Source: a virus. From it: a stretch of DNA of 64,000 bases. The notes beneath the pieces were generated by a model that worked only from the letters and a program-made list of their open reading frames with translations, ran no database searches and was not told where the DNA came from. Within the stretch, counting starts at the first letter, position 1. Every line of letters starts with the position of its first letter. The position numbers and the translations under genes are program-made. The stretch covers positions 32,001 to 96,000 of the IMG/VR virus record IMGVR_UViG_3300043424_000354. One strand, given 5' to 3'. Positions 498-22,436 of the stretch are shown piece by piece.

Positions 498-1257
498 AGA
501 CTTCATCAAATTGCTCCACGTAATCCCATGTTCCTTCTGGGGTTGCATCATTAGGATCTGTTGTTACTTGGTATTTCTGTGAATAGTTTGGTTGTTCAAT
601 ATCGGTGTAGGTCTGTGCAATAGCAGTTCTAATAATACCTTGTTGCTCAACTGGACCATACAGGTTTAGTCCAAGCGTAAAGTTGATAGTCCAAATAATT
701 GATCGACGTTGTAGATAATCGCCTTCGTAATTATCTTCGTAATTGATCGAGTCAAGGACTATTTGTAAATCTCTCTTGATTCCCATTTCTGGAATATCAG
801 TTATCGTTACGCAAAAATCAGGATTGAAGAATGGAATAATTTGTTCAATTATCTGTAGACCTTCATCTTGATTCTTTGACATAATAAACAACGACACGTT
901 CATGTCATATGGTGTGCTGGTAAATTGTGTTCGCAGCATATTAGGATCATCGCCCTGCCCGACTGCAACATTCTTGGTTAGTAGGTTGATTTTTCTGGAA
1001 GGATTATACTGCAATCCTGTGATTTCAAACCCCATTCTCGGAAGAATGATTGCTGCTGATTGCGTAGTTGTGCTGGGCACCTCAGCAATACGAGCAAGAA
1101 ATTTATTCTTTGGGGAATATGCCAGAGGAACGCGTAGAGATTGCACTGTTTCATTCGCAGCATTAAATCTTTTGACAGTAATCTGATTGAAGATTGTGCC
1201 AAAAGCAATTATTGCTTTACGAATGTGTTGGTGATAGAAGTGTTGACGTAGAAACAT
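487..1257 (-). CDS. gp15: Tail sheath stabilizer / tail terminator
   Basis: FYHQHIRKAIIAFGTIFN, VPLAYSPK, LPRMGFEI and QIIEQIIPFFNP motifs. Confidence 0.93.
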   Translation of the reverse strand: MFLRQHFYHQHIRKAIIAFGTIFNQITVKRFNAANETVQSLRVPLAYSPKNKFLARIAEVPSTTTQSAAIILPRMGFEITGLQYNPSRKINLLTKNVAVGQGDDPNMLRTQFTSTPYDMNVSLFIMSKNQDEGLQIIEQIIPFFNPDFCVTITDIPEMGIKRDLQIVLDSINYEDNYEGDYLQRRSIIWTINFTLGLNLYGPVEQQGIIRTAIAQTYTDIEQPNYSQKYQVTTDPNDATPEGTWDYVEQFDEVYEQ

Positions 1258-2003
1258 TATGCTCTCTTTTGAACCTCACCGAATGGATTGAATGCTGTGA
1301 AATCTATAATACCGTCTGCTTCTAATTCGAATTCATCATTGTCTGCTTGTGGATCTGTATCTGCTGTAGCATATTGTTGTAGAACAATCGAATCGTCCGA
1401 TGTATTCAATACTAAATCACCAGATTCCATTAGCAACTGGAATCTGTAAAGATCTTGACTCGAGTTATCTGTAATAGCATCAATCTCATCAATACCAGTG
1501 TCAATTCTCTCGGAACTAAATTCAAAGACGTCGCACTGGAGTTTATAGGTGTAGATCTTACCGAGTTGGTAGAACGGATTTAAGAAGTCGACATACTTGA
1601 TTACGAAAAACGTTTTTGTTTTCGAGAAGTATAGTAAGTCGCCTTCTGCTGGTCTTCCAGGTAATTGAAGTGTTGCGTTTTGTGCAACTCCCTCTTCCCA
1701 GCGTCTCTTTGCAACTACGAAAGTTGCCGAAGATCTGAACTCGAAACCAAACTTAGTGAACAGTTCGCCTTCGCCTTCGAAACCTTGAACATTCTCAAGA
1801 TACATTTCGAGAGGATATGCCTGATCAAAATACTGAAGCGCATCCTCGCCGAGAATACCGTCGAGATTACCAGTTTGTCTTGGGAGATAGTAAACATCGT
1901 GCCCATAGATCTTCAAACTTTCAATAACAAGATCTTCCACCAAACGCTGTTCGCTGGTGGTTCCTGAAGTATTTCCTGATTGAAAGTAGAAGTTGGTAGG
2001 CAT
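1257..2003 (-). CDS. gp14: Neck protein (head completion)
   Basis: EQRLVEDLVIESLKIYGHDVYYLPR, RPAEGDLLY, FYQLGK and C-terminal NPFGE. Confidence 0.93.
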   Translation of the reverse strand: MPTNFYFQSGNTSGTTSEQRLVEDLVIESLKIYGHDVYYLPRQTGNLDGILGEDALQYFDQAYPLEMYLENVQGFEGEGELFTKFGFEFRSSATFVVAKRRWEEGVAQNATLQLPGRPAEGDLLYFSKTKTFFVIKYVDFLNPFYQLGKIYTYKLQCDVFEFSSERIDTGIDEIDAITDNSSQDLYRFQLLMESGDLVLNTSDDSIVLQQYATADTDPQADNDEFELEADGIIDFTAFNPFGEVQKRA

Positions 2004-2006
2004 GTC

Positions 2007-2975
2007 TTATCCCACCATAAAATCGACAGGGAGTTCCGACTTTAGTTGCATTTCGGTTTCGATTGTAGTAATTTCTTCAACTGCCTCATCGTAAATTTCT
2101 TTACCATTAAGAATGACACCACCAGGAAGTTGGATTCCACCAAACTTCTTCATGTTCTCACCCCACTGACGTTTGATCAGTGCAGTTGCATAACGTTTCA
2201 AGAACATATCATCATACACCTGAGTATATGTTGCTGGATCCAGAATACGGTAGCATTCAATAATTACATAATCACCAGGATCGAAAACTTCTTCCCAGTT
2301 TACGTCGATAAACATCTTGTCCATTTTACGATTGTAGCGGATAGATCTATCTCCAACCAGTAGCATATCAAGCATTGATAAGTGCTGCTGAACTTGGGTG
2401 TAGTAGACCATGTCCGCAGACAGTAGGTTATACATATCGTTGAGGCGGAATTGGTAGATAATATCGAACATATTGTTGCGATTGTTCATACCAGAACTTG
2501 GACCATTTACTGGTAGAACACGAATTACACCAATTACCGAATCTGGGATAGGAATATATCCGTTTTGAATATCACCTGCAGTGTAAAAATCACTCGATGC
2601 CAATGCTCTACTAAATCCAGAAACTGAACCTGTTACAGTTTCACCAGCAACGAATGTTCCTTTAACGCTGGAAACTCTAGAATTTGTTCCGCTGAGCGAG
2701 AAAAGTTTACAAGTCGCGCCCGATGTTGCACCAGTTAAAATTTCATCAATCTCAAAAGATGGTGCAGACAGACCGGAAAATTTAAGTTCTGCGGTTGTAA
2801 CTTGGTGAGTGAGGTAAAGACGCTCAACCCCATCAAAATGATATTCTTGAAAATATTGCAAGGCATCGTCGATGCGGTCAGAAACCTGATCATCATCCAC
2901 GTTAATTTCAATTACTGGAAACCCTAGTCTGCGGAGACAGTAATCGATTAGTCCTTGTCTTGATGAAATTGCCAT
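2007..2975 (-). CDS. gp13: Neck protein
   Basis: LIDYCLRRLGFPVIEINVDDDQ and LKRYATALIKRQWGENMKKFGGIQLPGG. Confidence 0.95.
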   Translation of the reverse strand: MAISSRQGLIDYCLRRLGFPVIEINVDDDQVSDRIDDALQYFQEYHFDGVERLYLTHQVTTAELKFSGLSAPSFEIDEILTGATSGATCKLFSLSGTNSRVSSVKGTFVAGETVTGSVSGFSRALASSDFYTAGDIQNGYIPIPDSVIGVIRVLPVNGPSSGMNNRNNMFDIIYQFRLNDMYNLLSADMVYYTQVQQHLSMLDMLLVGDRSIRYNRKMDKMFIDVNWEEVFDPGDYVIIECYRILDPATYTQVYDDMFLKRYATALIKRQWGENMKKFGGIQLPGGVILNGKEIYDEAVEEITTIETEMQLKSELPVDFMVG

Positions 2976-3773: not shown

Positions 3774-5474
3774 TTAGTATGTTCCACCGTCGATATTACC
3801 AAACGCTGGTGTTCCACCCGAACCGCCAGAAATTAGGACTTGACCTGCAGTACCAGCACTTGTTGCTGCCAGCGCAGAAGTTCCGTTTCCGTATAGAATA
3901 CCCTTAGAAGTAAAGGTTCCTGCACCAGTACCACCATCAGCAACTGCGATATCCGAGGAAAGCGATGAAACCGTTCCACCTTCGATGTTAGCAACAAGAG
4001 TAGCAACAGTATAACCAGTTGCGGCAGTGTTAACAGTTGTGGTCGGAGCAGACTGCGAGTCCTTGAAGAGTTTCCACTTACCGTCCGAAGCATCACGGAA
4101 GAAACCAGAATAGAGGTCTAGTGAACCTGAAGTATCATAAACGCCGAACAGACCAATATCAACCGCATCAGTTGAAGTATTGTCTGTAGCAAGTCCGATC
4201 AGAGGGTCAGAAACAGTAAGAGTTGTTGAGTTAACAGTGGTTGTTGTTCCCGAAACTGTTAGGTTTCCAGCAACAGTAACGTTCGCGCCTGAAAGAGTCA
4301 GAGCAGTTGTCCCACCCGATGACTTAATATCATTTCCTGTAACCGTAAGATCCCCAGCAACAGTAACGTCTGCGCCAGAAAGTGTCAGAGCAGTGGCAGA
4401 AGATGATTTAATGTCGTTTCCTGTAACTGTGAGATCACCTGCGACTGATACATCTGCTCCCGAAAGTGACAGGGCAGTTGTTCCATCAGACGCCTTGAGA
4501 TCATTTCCACCAATCTTCAGATCGCCAGCAACAGCAACGTCGCCTGAACCCGAGAAGGTAAGAGCAGTAGTTCCACCATTCATCTTGATGTCATTGCCGC
4601 CAACTGTTAGGTCGCCGACAAGTGCAACATCGTCAGTAAGAGCAACAGTAACAGCAGCGGTTTCAGAACCTGAACCTGTTACGTTAATTTGGTTTGCAGT
4701 TCCTGCAACAGTAGCAACATAATTGCCAGAAGTGTCAGTTCCAAGAGCAACTGAGTTAGCAGCAATAGAAACAACACCTGCTTCTGTTACTGTAATATCG
4801 CCCGAAAGACCTGCGTAAATATAGTCTGCAACGTCTTCTGCTGTAATCTTTCTGTTTGCAGTTGCCGAAGCATCATAAACAAGAAATTCGTCAGCGTCAG
4901 CAAGTGAGGTAAGAGCAGTAGTTCCGTTCACATCAACAACGATACCAACTGAATTGTCAGAAATTGTTGTTTTGATACCTGCAGTACCAGCAAAAGTCAG
5001 AGTCGATCCAGTTGCGAACGAGTCAGTGTTTGGTGTGCCTTGGTTGTCCGAAATAGTGAACGACGAGGCAGCAGGAGCAGAGAAGGAAAGATTCCCAGAA
5101 CCATCAGAAACAAGAACGTCGCCATTGTTTCCGTCTGTGCTTGGCAGCGTGATAGTAATATCACCCGCAAGACTGTCTGGACCCTTCAGAGTTACTTTGT
5201 TGGAACCATTGCTTGTTCCTTCTGAGAAAGTAACCTTACCTGAAACTGATGATGTTTGTTTTGTTAGAAGAGCATCAACGGTAGAAGTAAACTTCTTACC
5301 GCCAATTGCGTCAATAACTGCAGCGCTACCTGAATCCACTGATTCAATGTAGAGAACAGCATTAGCACCGTTGTTTGCTGCATCTTCTGCATACGCCATT
5401 TCACCTTCTAGAAGATCAGATGTAGTTGGCGCTGTAGAACCTGAACTTCTCTTAATTTGAATTACTGTTGACAT
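3774..5474 (-). CDS. Tail fibre / virion fibre protein with internal repeats
   Basis: N-terminal IQIKRSSG...GEMAY; about five repeats of GDLTVxGNDIKxxxGTTALTLSGxxVxVA; GNLTVSGTTTTVNSTTL; C-terminal IDGGTY. Confidence 0.8.
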   Translation of the reverse strand: MSTVIQIKRSSGSTAPTTSDLLEGEMAYAEDAANNGANAVLYIESVDSGSAAVIDAIGGKKFTSTVDALLTKQTSSVSGKVTFSEGTSNGSNKVTLKGPDSLAGDITITLPSTDGNNGDVLVSDGSGNLSFSAPAASSFTISDNQGTPNTDSFATGSTLTFAGTAGIKTTISDNSVGIVVDVNGTTALTSLADADEFLVYDASATANRKITAEDVADYIYAGLSGDITVTEAGVVSIAANSVALGTDTSGNYVATVAGTANQINVTGSGSETAAVTVALTDDVALVGDLTVGGNDIKMNGGTTALTFSGSGDVAVAGDLKIGGNDLKASDGTTALSLSGADVSVAGDLTVTGNDIKSSSATALTLSGADVTVAGDLTVTGNDIKSSGGTTALTLSGANVTVAGNLTVSGTTTTVNSTTLTVSDPLIGLATDNTSTDAVDIGLFGVYDTSGSLDLYSGFFRDASDGKWKLFKDSQSAPTTTVNTAATGYTVATLVANIEGGTVSSLSSDIAVADGGTGAGTFTSKGILYGNGTSALAATSAGTAGQVLISGGSGGTPAFGNIDGGTY

Positions 5475-5750: not shown

Positions 5751-6079
5751 TATCGTGTTACCTCTGGATTGATTACAACAATACCTTCTAGTACTCTTAG
5801 AGTTTCTTCGTCGCTTTCGATTTCTATGTCGTAAACATACCTTCCTGCTTTTAATGCGCTTGTTTGTGTAGCAGTAAGAGAAATAGTAATCTCACCGTCA
5901 GTTGGCGATGATGCGCTTGCGGTAAAACTAGTTGCTGTTGAAGAGTAATAAGATTTTCTCAGTTGGGCAGTTACTGTATAATCTGTTAAATCTTTCACAT
6001 CACCGTTTTGGTCGCTTACCGTAATTGTCAAGGAGTATGTTGTTCCCTGATCAATATACAAATTTTGAATAGTCGCCAT
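5750..6079 (-). CDS. Conserved T4-like virion structural protein
   Basis: NLYIDQGTTY, LTATQTSALKAGRYVYDIEI and RVLEGIVVINPEVT; under a late promoter. Confidence 0.8.
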   Translation of the reverse strand: MATIQNLYIDQGTTYSLTITVSDQNGDVKDLTDYTVTAQLRKSYYSSTATSFTASASSPTDGEITISLTATQTSALKAGRYVYDIEIESDEETLRVLEGIVVINPEVTR

Positions 6080-6106
6080 GAGAAACCCTTATAAATTATT
6101 CTACAC

Positions 6107-6114
6107 TATTTATA
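6107..6114 (-). promoter_or_regulatory. T4-type late promoter TATAAATA
   Basis: Exact motif upstream of the gene starting at 6079; a one-mismatch TATAAATT on the + strand at 6090-6097 faces the GT operon. Confidence 0.75.
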
Positions 6115-6128
6115 AAATTGAGAGTTGT

Positions 6129-6806
6129 ATGAGAACCATTGTGACGATTAAATATGGAACAAAATATTCCGCAGCAGACGTAAATAAAATCGTCGAAGAT
6201 ACTGGCAGGAAGTATACCTACGTTTGTTTCACTGACGATCCTACCGATTTAGATCCAATTGTCCTTGCTTGCCCTCTTCCCAGTGACATCGAAGGTCACT
6301 GGTATAAGGTTTGGTTGTTCAGTCAGAAAGGATTTGGCGATATTTTGTATCTTGATTTAGACGTCAGAATACAAAAAAATATCGATCATCTATGGAATTA
6401 CCTTGACGAACGCCCAACAATAGTTTATACTTACTGGAAAGATAGAGGTTTCCCTGATCATGAAGGTGATACTCACGACATGCGGTATTTGAGTAATTAC
6501 AACTCAAGTGTCATGTTGTGGAAAGAAGGGTCTGGTAAATATATTTGGGATCATTTTAATTCTGACCCTGATTACTTCATGCTGAAATACTTTGGCGACG
6601 ACAGGTTTCTTTGGCATGAAACTTTCGGGTTGAATTGGTTTCCGAAAGGCGAGTTTTATTCTTTTGTTTATGGCGCAGACTATTATGGAATTGATGATCA
6701 CAACGAATCTTTCTGTTATAGACCAGACTACGCCATCGCATTATTGAATGGATTAGATCAGTTCCCTGGGGCAGATAAAGAGTATGATGAACTTCGTATG
6801 CATTAA
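6129..6806 (+). CDS. GT-A fold glycosyltransferase-like protein 1
   Basis: IKYGTKY, YVCFTDD, WYKVWLF, DxD motif YLDLDV, YNSSVMLW, GDDRFL; likely start 6129. Confidence 0.8.
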   Translation: MRTIVTIKYGTKYSAADVNKIVEDTGRKYTYVCFTDDPTDLDPIVLACPLPSDIEGHWYKVWLFSQKGFGDILYLDLDVRIQKNIDHLWNYLDERPTIVYTYWKDRGFPDHEGDTHDMRYLSNYNSSVMLWKEGSGKYIWDHFNSDPDYFMLKYFGDDRFLWHETFGLNWFPKGEFYSFVYGADYYGIDDHNESFCYRPDYAIALLNGLDQFPGADKEYDELRMH

Positions 6807-10363: not shown

Positions 10364-10939
10364 TCAATAATTCCTAAAATGATCAATAGTTATTTTGTTC
10401 CACACCAACTTGGCACTACATAAATCTTTACCAATGCGCAACATAGTTTCAGCAGTAGGATTAAATCCTCTCTTACTATACTTCACTAATCGTTGGTATG
10501 CCATAAATGGGTGAATATTGTTTTTTCTAAGTCGTAGAGTCTTACTATGTATATCATCCCAAAACTCCTCGGCATAATATATGTTCTTACCGTCAAATGA
10601 AATACAGCAAACAGTAAAGTCATAGTTATGTAATGTGCGAATTGGGTCTACGTATGGATAATCTGTTACTTGTATCTTTTTCCCAAACAAATTAAAGTCG
10701 TAAGAAAACTCGTTTTTATTTGTCTCGGGAGATATTAGTCTAAGATCTTGAATAAACTGTGTTGGATTATCGCTATAGAAATCATAATCGCTTATCGCAG
10801 TATTAGTAAGATGCGAAGTGATTGCGCCTCCTGCCAACCAATAGTTGTAGGATACCTTTCCTATTTTTTGTTTTAAGTTTTCAAATAAATCAAAAAATGG
10901 TTTGAATTTTTCTTGGTCTGCTGGTTTTACGATCATCAA
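10364..10939 (-). CDS. Nucleotidyltransferase (polyA polymerase/CCA head-domain-like)
   Basis: WLAGGAI...SDYDFY, YDFTVCC, RLVKYSKRGF. Confidence 0.75.
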   Translation of the reverse strand: MMIVKPADQEKFKPFFDLFENLKQKIGKVSYNYWLAGGAITSHLTNTAISDYDFYSDNPTQFIQDLRLISPETNKNEFSYDFNLFGKKIQVTDYPYVDPIRTLHNYDFTVCCISFDGKNIYYAEEFWDDIHSKTLRLRKNNIHPFMAYQRLVKYSKRGFNPTAETMLRIGKDLCSAKLVWNKITIDHFRNY

Positions 10940-11631: not shown

Positions 11632-12076
11632 TAACTGCTTCCTTGACGATTGCAGTATTCGCTTCTTCTTGCTGTAGAAGCATAACTGTATATGCAGTGA
11701 CTTCCATGATGTTCTTTGCCTTACGAATCTTTGACTTCAGTTCGCGATTCTTTGATGCTTTGACGCTATCGATTTCAAACGCATCCAGTTTGGCAGCGAA
11801 CAATTGCTCCTGCTGCATCCGTGTACGGTCAACCTTTTGCCGTTCAATATTGTGCTTGATTTGTTCATTGCGATCATCAAGACGTTTCTTCGTATTTGCA
11901 TCGATCTGTTCGATGCTATACTTCTTCAACAATTCCTCGAAGTCGCGATTAGTGCCATCGTTCATAATTGACGCTGTGACTCGTTTCCCAGTATCAGGGT
12001 AAACAAATTCTGCGATGACGTGCTGTTTTTCCTTATTTGCCCAATAAGGGTTTTCAATTGTGCGATTGGTAGTCAT
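11621..12076 (-). CDS. Hypothetical protein, first gene of the leftward modification operon
   Basis: GGAG Shine-Dalgarno; LFAAKLDAFEIDSVKASKNRELKSKIRKAK; no function recognised. Confidence 0.7.
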   Translation of the reverse strand: MTTNRTIENPYWANKEKQHVIAEFVYPDTGKRVTASIMNDGTNRDFEELLKKYSIEQIDANTKKRLDDRNEQIKHNIERQKVDRTRMQQEQLFAAKLDAFEIDSVKASKNRELKSKIRKAKNIMEVTAYTVMLLQQEEANTAIVKEAVSAE

Positions 12077-12143: not shown

Positions 12144-13727
12144 TTATGCAGTGCGAACCCAAAGTTTTACGGTTGACACTGTCTCTTTAGTTTCAATTAC
12201 TGTTGCGCCTGAATATGTTCCGGAATAAGTTCCCGAGTAGTTGCCTACGTAGTTACCGGAGTAGTTTCTGGAACCTGCGAAGTAACCAGTATAAAATCCT
12301 GTAAAGAATCCTTGGTAATTTCCAGTATATGTTGCAGTTCCAACATAATTTCCGGTAAAGTTATTTGCATATGTTCCGGAATAAGTTCCCGCATAGTTGG
12401 CGGCATAGTTTCTAGAACCAGAGAAGTATCCAGTATATGTTCCTGAATATGTTCCTGCATAGTTAGCAGCATAGTTTCTAGATCCAGCAAAGTATCCAGT
12501 AAAATTACCCAGATAGGTTCCGCTGAACGTACCCGAGAAATAACTTATATAATTTCCCGCAAAAGCAGTACCAGCATAACCACCATAGAAAACAGAATAA
12601 TACCCAACATACCCAGTTGCATATCCTGCGCCAATGTAGTTACCGCTGAAATTGCTAGAATAAGTTCCTGCATAGTTACCAGCATAGTTCCTAGAACCTG
12701 CGTAATACCCTACGTAGTTGCCAGAGAAATTGCCAGCATAGTTGCCTGCGTAATTTCTAGAACCCGCGTATGATCCAGTATAATTTCCTGTGAAATTGCC
12801 TGTATACGTTCCTGAATAGTTTGCCGGACCTACATAACCGCCACTGAAGTTGTTGGCATAATTACCAGAATATGCGCCAGCATAATTACCAGAGTAATTT
12901 CTAGAACCAGCATAGGTTCCTGCGTAGTTACCTGCGTAGTTACCTGCGTAGTTTTGCGGAGTTACTTGTTCACGAGTATCTGCAAACTCATCACCCATTT
13001 GCACCCAAGTGCCGCCAGATGGAGCAGTGGATTGAATCTTATATGTCCCAACGCCGCTATCGATAATTCTATTGCGGAAGTTTGGTAGCATCTGAAGAAT
13101 CTCAGAAGATGACATTTCTTTGACATCTTTCGTATTGATCAGTTTCAGTGGTTTTAGATTGGCATCCGAAAGAGAAGTAGCAGCAGTTTTCTGCCAAAGA
13201 TATGTTGTGGTATTCCCACCATTAGCAACATCGGTTAGCGTGTAACGAGCAACCCACGTCCCGCCTGACGGAGCAGAACCTTGTAGGCGATATTGACCCG
13301 CAGTATACGAAGTCTCCGAAACCATCGCATTAATTGCATAGTCCAGAATTTCGGTATCGATTTGACCATCAGTCATTTCGCGGATACCCGAATCATATTT
13401 CAGCGGACGATTTGTAATACTTTCTGATGCTGCAGCAGAGACCTGCTTTGCGTAGTATGTAACTGTGTCTAATGCACCAGTAGCAGGGTGAGTGCCTGTT
13501 GCTTCTTGGCGATCAGTGTCAGCAAAAGTTCCGATTGCAGTTCCTGCGCCACTATTGTTTGTGGTGATATTTAGTTCGCCAGTGCCAGTACCGTCGGAGT
13601 TAGCACCGAAAGAAACTGTCAATGTTTGGGCGATGTAGTTCTTGACTTCATCAGTAGTCATCTCCTGCAAACCTTGCCAGTTTGCAGAAGAAACAGGTGT
13701 TGCCGAGGATTTGTTTCTCAATACCAT
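12144..13727 (-). CDS. Gly/Tyr-rich repeat virion protein, paralog B
   Basis: About 255-aa N-terminal domain shared with 13731..15722, then a long [YF]-x-G-[NT] tract and C-terminal TVSTVKLWVRTA. Confidence 0.8.
   Translation of the reverse strand: MVLRNKSSATPVSSANWQGLQEMTTDEVKNYIAQTLTVSFGANSDGTGTGELNITTNNSGAGTAIGTFADTDRQEATGTHPATGALDTVTYYAKQVSAAASESITNRPLKYDSGIREMTDGQIDTEILDYAINAMVSETSYTAGQYRLQGSAPSGGTWVARYTLTDVANGGNTTTYLWQKTAATSLSDANLKPLKLINTKDVKEMSSSEILQMLPNFRNRIIDSGVGTYKIQSTAPSGGTWVQMGDEFADTREQVTPQNYAGNYAGNYAGTYAGSRNYSGNYAGAYSGNYANNFSGGYVGPANYSGTYTGNFTGNYTGSYAGSRNYAGNYAGNFSGNYVGYYAGSRNYAGNYAGTYSSNFSGNYIGAGYATGYVGYYSVFYGGYAGTAFAGNYISYFSGTFSGTYLGNFTGYFAGSRNYAANYAGTYSGTYTGYFSGSRNYAANYAGTYSGTYANNFTGNYVGTATYTGNYQGFFTGFYTGYFAGSRNYSGNYVGNYSGTYSGTYSGATVIETKETVSTVKLWVRTA
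12920..12953. repeat. 12-bp coding tandem repeat (CTGCGTAGTTAC, about 3 copies; encodes YAGN)
   Basis: ctgcgtagttac-ctgcgtagttac-ctgcgtagtt seen directly. Confidence 0.8.
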
Positions 13728-13730
13728 AGT

Positions 13731-15722
13731 TTACGCAGTTCTAATCCACAACTTAATTGTTGAAACTGTATCTTTAGTCGCTTGAATCGTCGCACCACTA
13801 TAATTACCAGTAAAGGTATTTATATACGAACCAGAATAGTTTCCGGTGTAAGTTCCGCCGCCTGCATAGTTACCACTGAAGTTGCCCGTGTAATTTGATG
13901 TTGTAGAGAAGGTTCCTTGATAGTTGCCAGAGTAGTTTGCTGGTCCTGTGAAGTACCCCGTATAGAAACCTCCTGGTCCAGAGAAATATCCAGTGTATGG
14001 AGTTGGAGGAACAAATCCGTTATAGTTTCCAGTGTATGATGTACCGTATGCTGGACCTTGGAACGAAACTGTTCCGGAATAATTACCAGCAAAGTTACTT
14101 ACGTATGTTCCGTTATATGTTCTTGAACCTGAATAATATGCTATACCAGTATATCCTGGACCTGTGCCAGCATAGTTGCCAGAATAGGTTCTGGATCCCG
14201 AGTAGGTTGCTGGTCCTACATAATTGCCAGTAAAAGTGCCTCCTGGCGAAGAGAAGGTGTTGGTATAAAATACAGGCAAGTATCCTATACCTGGAATAAA
14301 CTGCGTTTCCTGATATGAACCAGAATATGCTGGACCAGGACCAGTAAAGAATCCAGGACTATAGTAAACTGTCTGCAAACCACTATATGGATCAGGTATC
14401 TGATTTGAGAAATAATCAGTGTAATAATTAGTCCCCGAGTAATACCCTGTATAATAATCTGCCATAAAGGCACCAGTATATCCTGGTCCAGGAGCACCAC
14501 TATAATTACCTGTATATGTGGCAGTTCCTGCGTAACTACCAGCATAGTTTCTCGAACCAGAGTAATATGCTACACCAGAATATGTTGCTCCTGTTCCGGC
14601 ATAATTACCAGCATAGTTTCTTGAACCAGAGTAGTAAGATGCGTAATTACCAGTATATGATGGACCTGGACCACTAAAGAACGGCGAATAGAATGGGGAT
14701 CCAGTATAAGTGCCGGAATAACTGATCAGTGGACCTAGTGGTGCAGTATATGTTGTTCCAGTATAACTTACTGCATTAGTAAAGGTGTTTGAATACCCAG
14801 CAGTTCCAGCATAATTACCAGAAAAGTTACCTGTGTAATTTGAGGTTGTTGAAAAAGTGTTTGAATATGTTCCGCTGTAATTTACTACGCCACCATAGTT
14901 GCCGCTGTAGTTACCAGTGAAATTTCCGCTGTAGTTACCAGCATAATTCTGCGGAGAAACTTGCTCGCGAGTATCGGAAAACTCATTGCCCATCTGAACC
15001 CAAGTTCCACCAGAAGGTGCTGATGATTGTAATTTATAGGTTCCGATTCCGGTATCGATAATTCTATTACGGAAGTTCGGTAGCAGTTGTTCGATTTCAG
15101 ATTCTGTCATCTGCTTGCAGTTGCTGCCGTTGTAACTGCGCAACGGAGTATAATCTGAATTTGGAGAAGATGATGCTACTGTTTTTTGCCAGAGATATGT
15201 AACAGTGTTTCCGCCTTGCGCAGTATCTGTTAGCGTATATCTGGAAACCCAAGTTCCACCCGACGGAGCAGATGCCTGTAGTTTATATTGTCCAGCAGTA
15301 TAACTAGATTCGGCGACCATCGCCTCAATGCAGAGATCCAGCACGCCATCAATATCACCATCACTCATCTCTTCAAGATGAGAATCCCATGCGAGTGGTC
15401 TGTTGGTGATGCTTTCTGATGCCGCAGCAGTTACCTGCTTTGCGTAGTACGTGGTAGTTGTAGTATTTCCAGTCGCGGGATGCGTGCCAATCGATTCAGT
15501 TCTATTGGTATCAACAAAAGATCCGATTGAAGTCCCAGAACCCGAATTGTCTGTTGTGATGTTTATTTCAGCAGTACCTGTACCGTCAGTTACTGCTGCG
15601 AATTTTTCAGTGATAACATTGGCAATATAATTTTTTACCTCTGAATCGGTCATAGTCTGCAAACCGCTGATGTTTGCAGAAGTGATTGGGGACCCTGATG
15701 CTTTGACCTTTAGAGGATTCAT
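13731..15722 (-). CDS. Gly/Tyr-rich repeat virion protein, paralog A
   Basis: Same N-terminal domain (GTHPATG, YYAKQV, SAPSGGTWV twice), longer repeat tract, C-terminal TVSTIKLWIRTA. Confidence 0.8.
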   Translation of the reverse strand: MNPLKVKASGSPITSANISGLQTMTDSEVKNYIANVITEKFAAVTDGTGTAEINITTDNSGSGTSIGSFVDTNRTESIGTHPATGNTTTTTYYAKQVTAAASESITNRPLAWDSHLEEMSDGDIDGVLDLCIEAMVAESSYTAGQYKLQASAPSGGTWVSRYTLTDTAQGGNTVTYLWQKTVASSSPNSDYTPLRSYNGSNCKQMTESEIEQLLPNFRNRIIDTGIGTYKLQSSAPSGGTWVQMGNEFSDTREQVSPQNYAGNYSGNFTGNYSGNYGGVVNYSGTYSNTFSTTSNYTGNFSGNYAGTAGYSNTFTNAVSYTGTTYTAPLGPLISYSGTYTGSPFYSPFFSGPGPSYTGNYASYYSGSRNYAGNYAGTGATYSGVAYYSGSRNYAGSYAGTATYTGNYSGAPGPGYTGAFMADYYTGYYSGTNYYTDYFSNQIPDPYSGLQTVYYSPGFFTGPGPAYSGSYQETQFIPGIGYLPVFYTNTFSSPGGTFTGNYVGPATYSGSRTYSGNYAGTGPGYTGIAYYSGSRTYNGTYVSNFAGNYSGTVSFQGPAYGTSYTGNYNGFVPPTPYTGYFSGPGGFYTGYFTGPANYSGNYQGTFSTTSNYTGNFSGNYAGGGTYTGNYSGSYINTFTGNYSGATIQATKDTVSTIKLWIRTA

Positions 15723-15724
15723 TA

Positions 15725-16207
15725 TTAATTCAGCCTGTTACCGCTTGAGTCATAAACAATGAGATTTGTTACGCGATACCAGTCTTGAGTATCCTGAGCA
15801 ACCAATTCTACCGATGAGTATGGTGCCAAATTCACACCAGCGTTGGTTGTTCCACCATCAATAACGTCTGAAGTATTTGGGTATACAACAATGGTAACTG
15901 CAGTTGTGTTAACAACTTTGATATTAATACCCGCAGCAGCAGTAGGTAACTTAACACCCTGCGCCGCACTGGCAGTTGTTACAATATTGACTGTCTTTGT
16001 TAGCGCAGTGGCATCACCTTGCGTAGATCCTGCTGCGGAAACTGTTCCTGACACCGAAGTGGTAAGAGTGCCTGTTAATGTCAAATCTGCAAAAGAAGGA
16101 CTGTCACCAGATTCATACTTGTCTGTATTCAAATTGCTGAAGTTGTCATCAACCTCAGTATTTGTCAGCGGAGTCCCCTTTACAGATCTAAGGGTAAGAG
16201 TGCTCAT
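15725..16207 (-). CDS. Virion structural protein (fibre adaptor-like)
   Basis: LRSVKGTPLTNTEVDDNFSNL N-terminal motif typical of T4-like fibre/baseplate proteins. Confidence 0.75.
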   Translation of the reverse strand: MSTLTLRSVKGTPLTNTEVDDNFSNLNTDKYESGDSPSFADLTLTGTLTTSVSGTVSAAGSTQGDATALTKTVNIVTTASAAQGVKLPTAAAGINIKVVNTTAVTIVVYPNTSDVIDGGTTNAGVNLAPYSSVELVAQDTQDWYRVTNLIVYDSSGNRLN

Positions 16208-16433: not shown

Positions 16434-19400
16434 TTATACCTGCAACGCAATCGCTCTTAGTTCTCTTACACGAGGAACAACAGAACTGTTTGACGAAAGA
16501 GGAACAACCTTTACAGCGAACGTCTTATATCCAGTGAAGTTTGCGCTTCCGACAGCATACTCAAAAACGTCGCTTCCGTTTTTATTCGCAGCAGGAATTG
16601 TATATTCATATTCTACAAATCCTGACTTCGAAGCACTATCAAGTGGCGAATTGGTTAGTTCCAATTGAATCCAGTCAAGATCATCAAAGTTTGAGGCATC
16701 AGTTGCATTCTGGAATTTACCGTAAACTGCAACATCACATTCAGACGGAATCTTGTTGCTCAGATATACCTTCAAATCTTCTGCATCTTGACCATCATCA
16801 AGCACAACTCGGCGAGAGATATACTTCGAAGCAGCAGAACCATTGTTACCATCTTCATTCGTAGTAAGATTGTTTACATCATTCGCAACTGCGATAATTG
16901 AACACTTTCTAGTATCAATAACTGGCGAAACAGTAGATGTTTGCGTTACCATACCTGCTCTTACTGTTAGGGATTTATCTCCACCAAGATCTGCTTGCTC
17001 GTTCGAATAGGAATATACCTGTGCTTCGTACGTCAATTCATGTTCTTGACCAAAGTTGAAACCTTCATGGACCGTTCCACCAGCACCAGCACCTGTTGCA
17101 GTTGGTGCAACTGACCAAGAAACTGTCGCAGGAGTATGATCAATAAACCCGATATTGGTTTCTAGAACGTTCAATTGCTTATTCTCGACTTCAGTGATTT
17201 CAGCGTATGTAGTTCCATTACCGACGATGTCTGTAGCAGTAAATGAACCCTTAGTGATCAACAACTTACCGACATTATAGAGAGTATCGTATTGCTTTAC
17301 GAAACCTGTATTGAGAACAACGGTAACTACAGCGCTGGATCCACCGCCACTAGAGATAGTGAGAGTTGGGTTGCTTGTATATCCTGCTCCTGGATCTGTA
17401 ACGACTACATCAGTAACCAGACCGCTCGCGATTGTTACATTAACTGTAGCATTGGTTGTTGCTCCACCCCCCGAGAGGGTATGTGCAATAGTTCCGTCTG
17501 TATAACCACTTCCTGGGTTTGAGATCGTGAACGTGAAACCGTGAACCGTATCACCTGCCGCAAAATTACCATCGGAGAACGAATCAAATTTCAAATAATC
17601 AACGTTCATGTTGCGCATCACAACTGACCCAACAGTATTAATTTCGAAGTCGGCACGACGAAGAGTAAACTTAATATCTTCTTTCTGCCATGCAGTCCAC
17701 GATCTGTTGTTTGCAGAGGTGAATAGAACGCCGACATGCGGTTGTTCTGAAATTCTGTTCTGTGTTCCCAGTTGGTTTTCGCCAAGTTCCGAAACCCAGA
17801 TATTGTAATCTGGATTGTTACCAGCAGGAAGCAGAACAAAGCAATATTCAGTATTGTTTTGCAGATATACTGGTGAAGGGAAGGTGAAGGTTGTTGCTGT
17901 TGCAGCAGTTTCGCTTACCGACACAGCAGAAGGATTCAATGTAACTTCGCCGAACGGAATTACCTTGTTACCAGGATAACCATTTACAACTTCGCGAATC
18001 TGTAGAGTGATTGGCGCTGTCGATGACTTCGTTCTGAAATAGATGTCAAGATTTGTTACATAGCAACCAAAAGGCATACCTTCAACATAGAAAGTTTGAG
18101 CGATTGGATCTCTACCACGCGCAGGTTGCGCACACGGATTGATCGTGTTACACCCTGCAGGAATTGTTATTGGACTGCTGCTGCCGCCGAATGTGACATC
18201 AAAACCACCCAATTCTAAATCAATTGTTGTCGCTTCCCAACATGTTTCAACTGGTGCGCATGGATCTGGTGTTGGTGTATCCACAACCACGACTTCGCGT
18301 GGAGGATCTACTACAGGATCTTCTGTAATAACTGGGGGATCTTGAACGATTTGCGTTACATTAGTATTGTTGATTACAGTGGTGTTAGTTACTGTGTTGT
18401 CAATGTTAGTAACGTTGTTAACAGTTGTGAACGTATTGTTAACTGTTCTTTCGATTACACCAACTTGCCTATCAGCAATTCTATTTTCAGTTCGTTCAGT
18501 TTCGAATATCGATCTAGAATCTGATGTTGATGACAATTCGACATTAGCAACTCTGGTCGAAACAACGGTATCTTGAACGTTTTGCGAAAGACCGTTTGCT
18601 GACCAAGTCTTAGTCGAAGCAGTGGTAATAAACGCATCGCGATTGAATTGGTCGTCGCAGAGACGGAAATTCTTATCGCCTGTTCTGAACGTTGCTGCTG
18701 GAATTCTAAATTGACCGACGCAAACACCCTGTGCATTAGTGATCAGTGGATCTCCATAATCACCATCAGCATATGTTGAATATCTAGCAGGGTCGTTTGG
18801 TTTCTGGTCTGTCGCTGGGTCAAAGTCTAGTGGACGACAATGTTCAGCAACTGCAACACCATCAAAGAATGGATAAACTCTGGTATTTGGTTTTAGTCTC
18901 TGCGCAATAAACGTAACGATTACAGAGCGCATGAACGGAATGATCGAAGTATTCGTTACTCGAGCGCCAGTTCTTTGTGTTTGTGTTTCAGGCGTAACCG
19001 ATAGCGACACACCCTGACGAGTTTGTCTTTGTTGGATTGTTGTTGTAACAACTTGTGTTTGCTGCTGTAATAGCAGGTCGCCGCTAAGAGTAGTGTTACC
19101 TGCAACAGTTTCTGAAGACTGACCAACTGCAGTTCTTCCAGTTACGACATCCTGCCAGTCACCCCATTGAGTTCCCCATGCATCTGATAGATTTTCCCAA
19201 GCATCATAATTGCCGTCGAAGTTTACGCTAACATCTGGTAGTTGTGCGGTATCCGTCCAGTTATCGACTGGTGGATCTAGTTCCATATTTCCGATGTAAT
19301 TGAATAGTAACTCACCGACGCAATTTCTTGGTTTGGAGGCAAATGCGTTCTTAGTCATCTCTACGTTGGTGTACGGTAGAGTGATCAGATCACCTGTCTT

Positions 19401-22400
19401 ATAGACATTGGTTGAACTATCCGAATCGTAACCAATATCAATATTTTCTAGATAGAAGAATGGACGCATCTCTTTCTTTGCAGCATCAATTGAGATATGA
19501 TAAGCAGAATCAAAGACGTTACCAACGTTGTGACCTGTGAAGGCATCAACGAGAATACCATTCTTGAAGCGATCGAGACCAGAACTGTCAGGGATAGAAA
19601 GATCGCTTGCTGCCTTTTCAAGCAGGGATAGCGAAGTATAATACTCAAGGCGATTGATACGTTGTTCCAGAACGCCGATATCGCGCATTGTGTAACGGCG
19701 ATTGTCGATAGCGCGGAATGTTACGCCGTAATCTGGACGATTAACGGTCTTGGCAACATTCGGTGCAAGCGATGGATATGGAGGAATATTAATGATTGCC
19801 AGCGACATCGCATTTTCTGGTTCTGCTGGTGTCAATGGTGTCAGGGAAGGAGTCCCGTAGATAGAACTGAAGATACCTTCAGAGTCAATTATAAGTCTGT
19901 CGGTTCTTCCAAGATAATATTCCAGATCAGTAATAAACTGTTCAGTTGGAACGGGATTCGTAATACCGACGGATGGTGCTGTGATAGTTGTGCTCTCGGT
20001 TGGATTTGTTGTAGCACTACCAACAGTCGTAGAGTTTGCAGCGGAATCCGAGTAACGAACACGGAAGTCTAGAGTGTCGCGAAGATCAAACGACTCACCA
20101 GTGATAGGTGAAGTATAAACAGGAATATCCTGAGTTTTAATTGTTGCAGCAGTAGCACCAGTATCATCAATTGGATACGAGTCAACTGTAAAGAATGTTC
20201 CATCCGCAGAGGAACCATCGTGCGTGAAGTAGTCTAACTTGATTACAAGTTTCTTGTTTGTAAGAGAAGGACCAGACGCTTTCTTGACGATCTTGGCATT
20301 ACGATATTCGTTATCTCGTTGACCCTTATCAAGAGTAAACGAAGAGGCAACATCATTTGCTGCAGCAACTACTGCCGAATCGGAATCAGTATGCGCGCCA
20401 ATGAAGATATTCTTAATTTGATAAACGTCAGAAAGACCAAGCGAATATGTTCCACCACTTGTTGATGGGTGAGTGTTGGTATTAATGATCACATAACGAT
20501 CTTCACGAAGAACCTTTAGAACAGGTTGAGCATTCGCTGATTGGACGTTCACATATAGTTTAACTTGCTTTGGAGCAGAAGTTACGCCACCAGTAAGATC
20601 AATTGTGATTGACTGTGATGAGTTCTTTGTGAATGTAGCGCCAGTAAGATCAAGCACTGAACCAATCGGTCTCGAAACTGAGTTGATTGTCGCCGCTTCT
20701 TTCATCATCATGGTAAAATTATTTTTGATGATTGTTGCAGTAAACGAATCATAAGGGAATGTTTCGTCGCCGCTCAGAGTAATGGTCACTTGACCGTTTG
20801 CGTTAAGTTCCCCATCGAATTCTTTGGTGTAAATAAACGAGTTATCGTAAACAGAACTCGGAGCAATAGTCTTTGTTGCTCTTGCTGGAAGTCTATATAG
20901 AGATCTGTTGAAACTTGTTTCTTGGAGAACAGCATTACCGCCTGTCAAAACTACGTCAGCATGACCATCAGCAGTTGCATCGTTGTAGTAAATACCACGA
21001 ACGTCTTTGAAATCGCCGCTTGACATTTGAATGTCATAGAGATATAATCTATATTCTGCCGCAGCAGCACCCGCAGTCCCAGACTCATAAACAATTTGTC
21101 TTACGCGAGCAGTACCGACTTCGGATCCTGGAGCAGATGTTGCAGAGAACGTTGTTGCAGTTATTGCTCCTGCTGCTGTTCCACGGAGACTTACACGATC
21201 GCCACCATTAAGGTCCCAGAGACCACAGAATTCGTCAACTAGAATATAGTTACCATACGCAGTGCTGATCGAGGATTCCTGAACGGAAACTGTTGTCAGA
21301 CCCTTTGGAACTACAACATATTCTGTTTGGAAAGTTTCATGTTCGAACCCGCGAACATATGCCTTACCTGCCTCGAGACCAATAGCAAGAAGATCTGCGT
21401 CGCCGCCACGTTCTGGGTCGGTAGAATTTAATTCTTTAAGACCGTTGTTTCCGTCTACGTTCAAGTGCTCTTTGATCAGAACAGGGAATTGTCTGACTGC
21501 ATAGTTGCCGGATTCATCATATGTGCGCCTTGCCATGTTCTTGCCAAGTTCGCCGTAGATGTTTGCGGTATATGTTCTTTGAATTTCACCGTTAACAATA
21601 TCAACAAGTTGGTTGAATGTTGCTGGTAGAGTTTCCCCTGTGTCATACTTGACAAGAGTTGTTGTTACTTTGTATCTGTCTGCGCCAGGAGCAGCATAGT
21701 TAAACGATCCCTGTGCTGGATCAAGTAATGTCTGGTCGTCTTCAGAAGAAACAGTAGTTTCTGATAGTTGAAATCCAACCTTTACAGAAGGAAGGTTTGA
21801 ATACTTGGAGAGAATGATTGTTTGCGCTTCGTGGTTTACGAACTTACCATCAATGTAAACAATACCGTCGTCGACAGTAAGAGCAGAAGCAAGACCCCAG
21901 TAACTGTTTGTTGGTTCTGCCTGATCATACGCAGAATCTACTACGAAAGTGTCACCATTTCGTCCGGAGACTGTAGAAGTAACGGTGAGTGTTTCGCCAC
22001 CAGTAAAGTGGACCGCAGTAGTTTCACCATCCCCGCTGGTGTAGCGAAGATAAAGAGTCTTCATATCTGGCGATTCTGCAGCAGTTCCTGTAGCAGTATC
22101 TAAAATGACAGCAGTGATACCAGAAGTGCCACCAGTTACAGTGTCACCAACATAGTCTGCAAGAGTAGTATTACTTACTGCTGCAGATCCTGCATCAGTA
22201 TCAAGGATTTTAACAAACGCTCTGGCAGAGTCGAGTTTAAACTCACAACCCTGTACTACAGAACCGTTCTTGAAGATATGGTCGCCGAATTTACCGATCT
22301 GAGATTGCAACAGAGTCTGCAGTTGCGTAAGTTCGCGTGCCTGAACAGCATATCCAGGTTTAAACAGGACTCGGTTGAAATTCTTTGCATCATCAAAATC

Positions 22401-22436
22401 ATCATAATATGGTGATACATTTAAATTCAGTGCCAT
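16434..22436 (-). CDS. Large virion structural protein (VrlC/DUF4815-like)
   Basis: NLNVSPYYDDFD, VLFKPGYAVQARELTQLQ, NYAAPGADR, RRYTMRDIG, RLEYYTSLSLLE, DRFKNGILVD, DPIAQTF. Confidence 0.9.
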   Translation of the reverse strand: MALNLNVSPYYDDFDDAKNFNRVLFKPGYAVQARELTQLQTLLQSQIGKFGDHIFKNGSVVQGCEFKLDSARAFVKILDTDAGSAAVSNTTLADYVGDTVTGGTSGITAVILDTATGTAAESPDMKTLYLRYTSGDGETTAVHFTGGETLTVTSTVSGRNGDTFVVDSAYDQAEPTNSYWGLASALTVDDGIVYIDGKFVNHEAQTIILSKYSNLPSVKVGFQLSETTVSSEDDQTLLDPAQGSFNYAAPGADRYKVTTTLVKYDTGETLPATFNQLVDIVNGEIQRTYTANIYGELGKNMARRTYDESGNYAVRQFPVLIKEHLNVDGNNGLKELNSTDPERGGDADLLAIGLEAGKAYVRGFEHETFQTEYVVVPKGLTTVSVQESSISTAYGNYILVDEFCGLWDLNGGDRVSLRGTAAGAITATTFSATSAPGSEVGTARVRQIVYESGTAGAAAAEYRLYLYDIQMSSGDFKDVRGIYYNDATADGHADVVLTGGNAVLQETSFNRSLYRLPARATKTIAPSSVYDNSFIYTKEFDGELNANGQVTITLSGDETFPYDSFTATIIKNNFTMMMKEAATINSVSRPIGSVLDLTGATFTKNSSQSITIDLTGGVTSAPKQVKLYVNVQSANAQPVLKVLREDRYVIINTNTHPSTSGGTYSLGLSDVYQIKNIFIGAHTDSDSAVVAAANDVASSFTLDKGQRDNEYRNAKIVKKASGPSLTNKKLVIKLDYFTHDGSSADGTFFTVDSYPIDDTGATAATIKTQDIPVYTSPITGESFDLRDTLDFRVRYSDSAANSTTVGSATTNPTESTTITAPSVGITNPVPTEQFITDLEYYLGRTDRLIIDSEGIFSSIYGTPSLTPLTPAEPENAMSLAIINIPPYPSLAPNVAKTVNRPDYGVTFRAIDNRRYTMRDIGVLEQRINRLEYYTSLSLLEKAASDLSIPDSSGLDRFKNGILVDAFTGHNVGNVFDSAYHISIDAAKKEMRPFFYLENIDIGYDSDSSTNVYKTGDLITLPYTNVEMTKNAFASKPRNCVGELLFNYIGNMELDPPVDNWTDTAQLPDVSVNFDGNYDAWENLSDAWGTQWGDWQDVVTGRTAVGQSSETVAGNTTLSGDLLLQQQTQVVTTTIQQRQTRQGVSLSVTPETQTQRTGARVTNTSIIPFMRSVIVTFIAQRLKPNTRVYPFFDGVAVAEHCRPLDFDPATDQKPNDPARYSTYADGDYGDPLITNAQGVCVGQFRIPAATFRTGDKNFRLCDDQFNRDAFITTASTKTWSANGLSQNVQDTVVSTRVANVELSSTSDSRSIFETERTENRIADRQVGVIERTVNNTFTTVNNVTNIDNTVTNTTVINNTNVTQIVQDPPVITEDPVVDPPREVVVVDTPTPDPCAPVETCWEATTIDLELGGFDVTFGGSSSPITIPAGCNTINPCAQPARGRDPIAQTFYVEGMPFGCYVTNLDIYFRTKSSTAPITLQIREVVNGYPGNKVIPFGEVTLNPSAVSVSETAATATTFTFPSPVYLQNNTEYCFVLLPAGNNPDYNIWVSELGENQLGTQNRISEQPHVGVLFTSANNRSWTAWQKEDIKFTLRRADFEINTVGSVVMRNMNVDYLKFDSFSDGNFAAGDTVHGFTFTISNPGSGYTDGTIAHTLSGGGATTNATVNVTIASGLVTDVVVTDPGAGYTSNPTLTISSGGGSSAVVTVVLNTGFVKQYDTLYNVGKLLITKGSFTATDIVGNGTTYAEITEVENKQLNVLETNIGFIDHTPATVSWSVAPTATGAGAGGTVHEGFNFGQEHELTYEAQVYSYSNEQADLGGDKSLTVRAGMVTQTSTVSPVIDTRKCSIIAVANDVNNLTTNEDGNNGSAASKYISRRVVLDDGQDAEDLKVYLSNKIPSECDVAVYGKFQNATDASNFDDLDWIQLELTNSPLDSASKSGFVEYEYTIPAANKNGSDVFEYAVGSANFTGYKTFAVKVVPLSSNSSVVPRVRELRAIALQV

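Follow-up and report, generated by a model that had tools for sequence, protein, structure and literature searches.

What kind of protein is encoded by two adjacent viral genes whose products consist largely of Tyr/Gly repeats laid out symmetrically about their own center? This question is raised by a stretch of 64,000 nucleotides (nt) of virus DNA (positions 32,001 to 96,000 of IMG/VR record IMGVR_UViG_3300043424_000354; hereafter, the window), which lies within an IMG/VR virus contig of 108.6 kb, and freshwater metagenomes of several studies carry the same DNA. The two genes lie in tandem and encode a short paralog of 527 amino acids (aa), P0001, and a long paralog of 663 aa, P0002; all other P numbers used below denote their relatives. 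An initial annotation had interpreted the repeat tracts as insertions in a hairpin loop that run out and back as a long antiparallel needle. We examined this interpretation using module alignment, structure prediction, and comparison among relatives, and the results point, with moderate likelihood, to fold-back ribbon fiber proteins, late structural products of a freshwater T4-like myovirus.

The base of P0001 and of P0002 was found to consist of three tandem modules of ~85 aa each, as seen both in the module alignment and in the thrice-repeated strand/helix pattern of the AlphaFold2 (AF2) model, and the threefold repeat described for the N-terminal domain is thereby borne out. Every module combines a helix that begins M-[TS]-[DE]-x-[ED]-[IV] with a GxYKLQxSAPSGGTWV-type strand and a hairpin of the form D-T...T-x-Y-L-W. 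In P0002, the motifs on which the initial annotation had relied were all in place, namely, DTNRTE at residues 71 to 76, TTYYAKQ at 90 to 96, TDTAQGGNTVTYLWQK at 165 to 180, SDTREQV at 249 to 255, and TVSTIKLWIR at 652 to 661. The hairpin of module 3 is split by a tract of the form (x-Tyr/Phe-x-Gly)n, with ..FSDTREQ as the outgoing strand and ..TVSTIKLWIRTA as the return strand. Among the tracts measured, this insert was 13 to 829 aa long, and it reached ~1100 aa in P0229; loops of only 13 to 40 aa occur in some homologs, the relatives P0158, P0130, and P0146 having about 15 to 40 residues. Despite this variation, the C-terminal strand ..TVSTxKLWxRTA was conserved in all complete relatives examined. 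In the AF2 model of P0001, the base and the return strand had predicted local distance difference test (pLDDT) scores of >90, and the flanks of the tract formed one long hairpin (strands E248-272 and E493-525) that extended ~20 residues into the tract. The same held for a relative, P0121, whose flank hairpin (E243-272 and E360-391) likewise extended ~20 residues into its tract. The conserved C-terminal strand, the short-loop homologs, and the AF2 flank hairpin (pLDDT >85) thus place the tract within the hairpin of the third module, with the chain returning to the base, as had been claimed.

The tracts proved to be symmetric about their centers. In P0001, the tract spans residues 255 to 509, and its sole FYGGY motif (residues 380 to 384) lies exactly in the middle, with 125 aa on either side. 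With the Arg of each GSRN kink as a marker, the gaps form a palindromic list (21, 48, 22, 71, 22, 48, 22), GSRN being located at 274, 322, and 344 before the center and at 415, 437, and 485 after it, and two odd kinks, GPAN at 300 and GTAT at 463, lie 45 aa from the start and 43 aa from the end of the tract, respectively. These positions agree with the description of four kinks on either side of the center, each set spanning 70 residues. In P0002, whose tract spans residues 255 to 645, the Arg gaps are 113, 23, 120, 23, and 111. Two 30-aa double-kink blocks of the form YSGSRxY...YYSGSRxY occupy residues 364 to 393 and 507 to 536, and their midpoint, residue 450.0, is the center of the tract, while TFSTTSNYTGNFSGNYAG occurs at 289 to 306 and again at 604 to 621, with a midpoint at 455. 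Both block pairs therefore stand at the quoted places of the nested A-B-tip-B'-A' arrangement. For the Pro positions of P0002, mirror symmetry was not found at the center register.

Spacing permutation gave p = 0.03 for the Arg palindrome of P0001, a value limited by the small number of possible permutations, and p < 0.0005 for Arg-rich relatives such as P0012, in which the gaps are 31, 20, 20, 22, 22, 22, 26, 109, 25, 22, 22, 22, 20, 20, and 32. Further subfamilies show Arg palindromes of their own (13, 26, 18, 26, 22, 26, 18, 26, 14; 13, 10, 14, 10, 22, 10, 14, 10, 14; and 21, 92, 38, 92, 22).

This symmetry cannot be traced to palindromic or inverted repeats in the DNA, since none was present in the region of the gene pair. 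Blocks A and A' of P0002 are identical in 18 of 18 residues, and the surrounding 21 codons are identical at 46 of 63 nt, with many synonymous differences and with one Ser encoded by a TCN codon in one copy and by an AGY codon in the other. Thus, the symmetry is not an artifact at the DNA level, and identical protein blocks with diverged codons indicate that it has been kept by selection on the protein rather than produced by a recent DNA event. Although the proteins are extremely repetitive, direct DNA repeats at positions 12144 to 15722 are only 60 to 75% identical, few 15-mers recur, and codon choice varies among the repeats, which would limit slippage and recombination.

The relation between the two arms was then evaluated across relatives, in a set of 66 unique tracts of 72 to 414 aa, each with a single [FY]YGG[FYW] turn. 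Left-arm and right-arm lengths were correlated (r = 0.985) and differed on average by 0.7 aa; the arms were equal within 4 residues in 34 of 42 length classes. The initial annotation had also named paired insertions or deletions (indels) in the two arms as a check, and such indels were found. P0002 and P0004, its nearest relative of another length (base 97% identical), differ by exactly two 10-residue gaps, at 288 to 297 and 600 to 609, which overlap blocks A and A'. Among 52 close pairs (each protein used once, tract identity of ≥80%, length difference of ≥6 aa), 29 had mirror-placed indels of near-equal size and 13 had a single insertion at the center; 4 further pairs were paired around the turn and had been binned otherwise. 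The sizes of the mirrored indels include 4+4, 8+8, 12+12, 13+13, 16+16, 20+20, 20+21, 22+22, and 23+23 and, at the upper end, 30+30, 44+44, 102+102, and 128+128. In P0044 and P0041, the paired 4+4-aa indels lie at the very base, 9 residues from each end. When contigs of four sequencing runs were compared with the locus, only short identical or near-identical pieces were obtained, and these held no informative indels.

A unique turn held in the middle while tract length varies six-fold, with matched changes on either side, is what arms paired along their full length would predict, and repeat slippage alone would not yield a central turn together with matched indels. The features of a fold-back hairpin, that is, tract ends in adjacent strands, equal arms, and mirror-paired indels, were thus found together, with a minority of exceptions. 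The long paralogs at two related loci (L037:7589-9610 and L046:9001-12138) carry Pro-rich (NPAGPSYS..)n subtracts in both arms at a similar distance from the base; the location of these subtracts at like heights indicates that the type of block is mirrored and not the kinks alone.

Within the tracts, the dominant spacing of aromatic residues was 4 and spacings were mostly even, which agrees with the 4-residue aromatic periodicity noted earlier. The repeats are made up of 4-residue units with 2-residue SR, PA, or TA inserts, Gly accounts for 19 to 21% of the tract and recurs at each fourth residue, and the overall composition is rich in G, Y, N, S, and T. Given the even spacing, Tyr/Phe residues of the main phase would alternate with Gly on one face of the strand, with N/S/T/A on the other. 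At the register that sets Arg opposite Arg, P0001 yielded 44 aromatic:Gly pairs and 0 aromatic:aromatic pairs, and in one 570-aa tract 117 of 146 aromatics fell opposite Gly in a single register, suggesting that the phase is held over hundreds of residues. This Tyr:Gly complementarity was dropped as an independent proof of antiparallel pairing because a parallel control was nearly equal and because it largely reflects the periodicity. Sequence identity was 0.72 to 0.83 at both bases of the tract and fell steeply to 0.30 to 0.41 at the center; the center is thus the least conserved part and the two bases are the most conserved, in line with the proposed variability of the tip. The tracts of P0001 and P0002 contain 11 and 14 N-x-S/T sites, respectively.

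The fold of the base was compared with known structures as well. Foldseek found no match in PDB or BFVD at an E value of ≤0.001. The best base matches were beta-prism domains of the MABP/MACPF type, with VIA Z scores of 5.6 to 7.4 over 114 to 122 aligned residues, a range that is common for unrelated models (Plu-MACPF 2qp2, 7.4; Mp2Ba1 8b6v, 7.3; MVB12B 3tow, 6.0; perforin-2 P2 6sb1, 5.6). T4 gp11 was discarded as noise (Foldseek E = 1.3, VIA Z = 2.1), and a lead to the Gp10_C family from ESM Atlas (0.81) was too weak to use, the search yielding otherwise only unnamed viral clusters. The beta-prism domains and the base would have a pseudo-threefold beta architecture in common, and the P2 domain of perforin-2 has one elongated beta-hairpin. 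The base differs from these domains in possessing an extra helix per module and in that its hairpin insert comprises tens to hundreds of residues per arm, versus ~20. The base may be a beta-prism-like knob, a pseudo-trimer within one chain.

The genes surrounding the pair offered evidence on its role. Upstream, on the minus strand, lie genes for gp5-, gp6-, gp7-, and gp8-like baseplate proteins, a DUF4815 protein, and a 160-aa protein; downstream is a block of genes that includes at least one glycosyltransferase gene, followed by neck genes (Table 1). The gp6-like protein is 33 to 36% identical to those of Pelagibacter phage HTVC008M, Melnitz phages, and cyanomyoviruses. In pelagi- and cyanomyophages, a hypervariable host-recognition cluster that contains fiber genes and glycosyltransferases is bounded by a large structural gene of the VrlC type on one side and by the neck gene gp14 on the other (PMC7029224). 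The layout of the window, with a DUF4815 gene whose product may correspond to VrlC, a glycosyltransferase gene, and a neck gene, fits such a cluster. Judging from the position of the genes, the conserved knob, the fall in conservation along the tract, and the large differences in length among close relatives, P0001 and P0002 probably serve as host-contact fibers whose knob is docked on the virion. The N-x-S/T sites of the tracts, together with the neighboring glycosyltransferase, suggest that the fibers could be glycosylated.

We propose the following arrangement for these proteins. A single chain would form the knob from three ~85-aa modules, each a helix plus a beta-hairpin, and the hairpin of module 3 would extend as two very long antiparallel arms composed of x-Tyr/Phe-x-Gly units. 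The arms would be closed by a tight YGG turn in P0001 and by a Pro/aromatic-rich center of ~120 aa in P0002, the latter of which may form a small tip domain. If the arms pair along their entire length, the GSR/GPA/GTA kinks, the 10-aa inserts, and the Pro-rich subtracts of one arm would need counterparts at an equal height on the other, and length would evolve as repeat units are added or removed in pairs or as the tip grows. We infer that the arms form a two-stranded beta-ribbon with Tyr and Gly on one face, each Tyr opposite a Gly, and small polar residues on the other; an antiparallel sheet favors Tyr opposite Gly ("aromatic rescue"). At full extension, the ribbon would measure ~40 nm in P0001 and up to ~65 nm in P0002. 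From the gene context and the variability, the knob is expected to dock on the baseplate or on another fiber, with the ribbon and its variable center reaching outward to make the first contacts with the host, and the conserved combination of a long and a short paralog would provide two reaches.

Several observations weigh against this reading. The arms are unequal by 7 to 22 residues in 8 of the 42 length classes, mostly by about one repeat unit beside the tip, and in three otherwise ~100% identical pairs of relatives, indels of 8, 13, and 22 aa are confined to one arm. The initial annotation had held length changes in one arm only to be contrary to its proposal; they do occur in a few near-identical relatives, where they look like fresh slippage of a single repeat unit, whereas equal arms otherwise prevail. 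Because such changes exist, imbalance must arise and be tolerated at least transiently, and the equal-arm rule is thus statistical, a strong tendency rather than an absolute. Arg symmetry is lacking in many distant homologs, a single global register does not fit P0002, and parallel pairing of the two halves was nearly as good family-wide (median, 0.33 versus 0.39). No residue-level mirror covariation of small residues was detected (25.1% identical pairs versus 20 to 25% in slid registers), and the lead of the true register over the slid registers, seen in 21 of 34 tracts, was not significant. In the AF2 models, pLDDT was <50 for residues 275 to 494 of P0001 and 270 to 360 of P0121, that is, over ~85% of the tract in both; the distal ribbon is therefore not supported by these models. 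AlphaFold modeling, which had been recommended, thus succeeded for the base and for the first ~20 residues of each arm and gave low confidence for the distal tract. No homolog was found among cultured phages, either with the PHROGs v4 profiles at an E value of ≤0.01 or by tblastn against 50,697 phage records. Moreover, the tip of P0001 is only a tight YGG turn, a poor receptor site, so any adhesive surface of a P0001-type protein may lie on the Tyr-rich ribbon. Of the needle with a receptor-binding tip that was originally envisaged, the paired arms and the variable center are retained, but its straightness is not upheld by the low-confidence AF2 models and, in P0001, the tip is a mere turn.

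Other explanations were weighed on the same evidence. The arms may be paired and yet belong to a multichain fiber, in which two or three ribbons, from a homo-oligomer or from a long and a short chain, are stacked with Tyr knobs in Gly holes or have their arms swapped. The checkerboard face of Tyr and Gly, as derived from the P0001 register, would be self-complementary; a lone two-stranded ribbon with 125 to 400 residues per arm has no precedent known to us; and the long and short genes are conserved as a pair. Their tract lengths correlated at 0.89 in 16 of 18 loci, after post hoc exclusion of two, but over all 18 loci the Spearman coefficient was 0.38 (p = 0.12), and this correlation was set aside as not significant. 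An ESMFold2 homodimer of the short relative P0186 (341 aa, two copies) scored 0.05 against a mark of 0.42, which is evidence neither way. We regard the multichain fiber as rather unlikely; a base that is already a probable pseudo-trimer in one chain argues against a classical homotrimer. It is also conceivable that the paired arms fold back at the mirrored kinks, which recur every ~20 to 48 residues, so that a beta-sandwich or solenoid results, compact and stubby rather than needle-like. The kinks lie at matched heights, as if both strands bent together, and spacings of 20 to 26 aa are near the coil lengths of beta-solenoids, but kink-free stretches of 92 aa (P0048) and 113 aa (P0002) argue against it, the 4+4-aa indels at the base of P0044 and P0041 suit a zipper better than a solenoid built coil by coil, and AF2, which usually recognizes solenoids, found none, weak as this last point is. 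A compact fold is therefore improbable.

At the other extreme, the tract could be a disordered, sticky Tyr/Gly loop of low complexity whose symmetry is a by-product of repeat expansion. Low AF2 confidence over the tract and a composition (G, Y, N, S, and T) like that of low-complexity domains would suit such a loop, and repeat slippage does happen, as the one-arm changes show. Slippage, however, makes one-sided tandem changes and can neither hold the turn central over six-fold lengths nor yield equal indels on two sides, and identical blocks with diverged codons imply purifying selection; we thus consider a disordered loop highly improbable. A last alternative accepts the ribbon and questions its purpose, making it a brace or decoration on the tail, the fibers, or the capsid, or a scaffold for neighboring enzymes. 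This would accord with the bare YGG turn of P0001-type tips, with the nearby phrog_1962 glycosyltransferase and several unassigned neighboring genes, and with the N-x-S/T sites counted in the two tracts. Extreme variability in length and sequence between close relatives is, however, what host-range determinants typically show, unlike braces, which have to fit a conserved structure, and the position of the genes agrees with the host-recognition cluster described (PMC7029224), so that we judge a role apart from host recognition unlikely.

The base domain defines a large family. At an E value of ≤1e-3, 501 relatives were retrieved from a 90%-clustered collection, and at 50% identity the domain is represented by at least 382 clusters. 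The family comes from viromes of freshwater and other aquatic habitats, and named sources label almost all members "hypothetical protein." Pfam-A profiles gave no match at an E value of ≤1 except for a chance 12-bit hit to NCBP3, PDB sequences gave no match, and no account of a Tyr/Gly ribbon or of fold-back phage fibers was found in the literature searched. At most related IMG/VR loci (L003-L054), a long paralog is followed by a short one in tandem (for example, L021:531-6373 and L046:9001-13439), with sizes from 621+493 to 1102+843 aa, including 663+510 and 795+555 aa, and with 1045+432 aa in one group; a few loci are single-copy (465, 493, or 688 aa). The earlier description of two paralogs of different lengths therefore holds among related phages as a conserved long+short pair. 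Among ~100% identical relatives of the long-paralog loci, a change in the copy number of a 13-aa unit was seen in the left arm only.

With regard to topology, the fold-back ribbon proposed for P0001 and P0002 resembles the stalk of streptococcal antigen I/II (SpaP/AgI/II) and the helical hairpins of colicin Ia and flagellin, which also run out and back, with termini together at the base and a variable far end. The likeness is one of topology only: those stalks are alpha-helix/polyproline II (PPII) or coiled-coil structures, whereas the arms of P0001 and P0002 consist of beta-compatible x-Tyr-x-Gly units. None of these stalks has a sequence or fold relation to P0001 and P0002, whose setting is a phage and not a cell surface, and the repeat types of antigen I/II, the Ala-rich heptads of an alpha-helix and the Pro-rich repeats of a PPII helix, are absent from the two sequences. 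Similar in genomic place, in high variability, and in repeat-based change of length are T4 gp12 and gp34-37, triple beta-spirals of the adenovirus type, and collagen-like fibers. In these classical fibers, however, three identical chains lie in parallel, each anchored by its N terminus and carrying the receptor-binding tip at its C terminus, whereas in P0001 and P0002 one chain would run out and back with both termini in the knob. The tracts do not follow a collagen-like (G-X-Y)n pattern, since Gly occurs at each fourth rather than each third residue, nor do they have the polyglycine-II/PPII motifs of gp38 type, whose period is 3, versus a period of 4 with even aromatic spacings here. OspA, SasG, the Tyr-Gly pairs of "aromatic rescue," and silk fibroin offer an analogy, with flat beta structure lacking a conventional core, a face defined by Gly, and aromatics lying over cross-strand Gly; none of OspA, SasG, and silk fibroin is known to be a two-stranded hairpin of 100 to 400 residues per arm, and there is no homology to P0001 or P0002.

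To our knowledge, all structurally described phage fibers and spikes are parallel trimers. A phage host-contact fiber is in itself of a known kind, but for an out-and-back chain that combines a Tyr/Gly code of 4 residues with arms of equal length, no precedent was found in the curated libraries and literature searched. We tentatively suggest, at somewhat less than an even chance, that these proteins represent a new class of fibrous fold, in which a single-chain, two-stranded antiparallel beta-ribbon of 100 to >400 residues per arm, with a Tyr/Gly checkerboard, emerges from one hairpin of a pseudo-trimeric knob, is tuned in length in matched steps, and acts as a host-contact fiber opposite in principle to parallel homotrimers. 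If true, this widespread family would constitute a new architectural solution for host contact, and the fold would be a very simple one, with a 4-residue code, a repeat number that sets the length, and 2-residue kinks that mark the register, and would attract interest in protein design and materials. The equal-arm rule would also be a rare case in which covariation of indels, not of residues, reveals a fold beyond the reach of structure predictors. The receptor-binding proteins of T4-like phages of streamlined aquatic bacteria and cyanobacteria are, as far as we know, almost entirely unknown, and with the family located in the putative host-recognition cluster of T4-like phages related to those of these abundant bacteria, a structural model would open host-range questions to testing.

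Table 1. Coordinates of the paralog pair, its parts, and neighboring genes in the window
Feature	Position	Strand	Basis or remark
P0002 gene, 663-aa long paralog	13731..15722	-	Open reading frame, translation; 501 base-domain homologs
N-terminal part of P0002 base domain, residues 1-254 (modules 1 and 2 plus the first half of module 3, through outgoing strand ..FSDTREQ)	14961..15722	-	Module alignment; equivalent part of P0001 at AF2 pLDDT >90
P0002 Tyr/Gly tract, residues 255-645, 391 aa; Pro/aromatic-rich center	13788..14960	-	
P0002 block A, residues 289-306, TFSTTSNYTGNFSGNYAG, outgoing arm	14805..14858	-	
P0002 block A', residues 604-621, same 18 aa as block A, returning arm	13860..13913	-	
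P0002 block B, residues 364-393, outgoing arm, pair of GSR kinks separated by 23 aa	14544..14633	-	
P0002 block B', residues 507-536, returning arm	14115..14204	-	B/B' midpoint at tract center
P0002 C-terminal return strand, residues 646-663, IQATKDTVSTIKLWIRTA, completing module 3	13734..13787	-	Kept in all complete homologs examined
P0001 gene, 527-aa short paralog	12144..13727	-	Open reading frame
P0001 base domain, N-terminal part, residues 1-254	12966..13727	-	AF2 pLDDT 92-98 except for a dip at 41-50 (mean 73)
P0001 Tyr/Gly tract, residues 255-509, 255 aa	12201..12965	-	
P0001 central turn FYGGY, residues 380-384	12576..12590	-	125 aa of tract on either side
P0001 C-terminal return strand, residues 510-527	12147..12200	-	AF2 strand E493-525, pLDDT 85-98 from residue 501
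160-aa gene, directly upstream in the P0001/P0002 operon	15725..16207	-	Context only; no family match
2000-aa DUF4815 structural protein	16434..22436	-	Context only; next after the baseplate genes, cluster boundary (start); PF16075, E = 5e-57; phrog_358/877
T4 neck protein, cluster boundary	1257..2003	-	PF11649, E = 2e-27
Head-tail adaptor-like gene, cluster boundary	2007..2975	-	phrog_211
566-aa protein	3774..5474	-	Weak match to phrog_697 (large phage structural-protein family), E = 4e-9
Phage glycosyltransferase	6078..6806	+	phrog_1962, E = 1.8e-13
Gene matching PHROGs of unknown function	10364..10939	-	

Between the fiber pair and the next structural gene, nine genes are located on both strands at positions 6078 to 12076, two of which have a PHROG match, the rest being without a Pfam or PHROG match. 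The 566-aa protein encoded beyond them is, from its sequence match, probably another fiber-like component of the cluster. On the other side of the pair, the product of the 160-aa gene starts with ..KGTPLTNTEVDDNFSNL, which is loosely like the opening helix of a base module, ..MTDSEVKNYIANV, and could be an adaptor or a small fiber.

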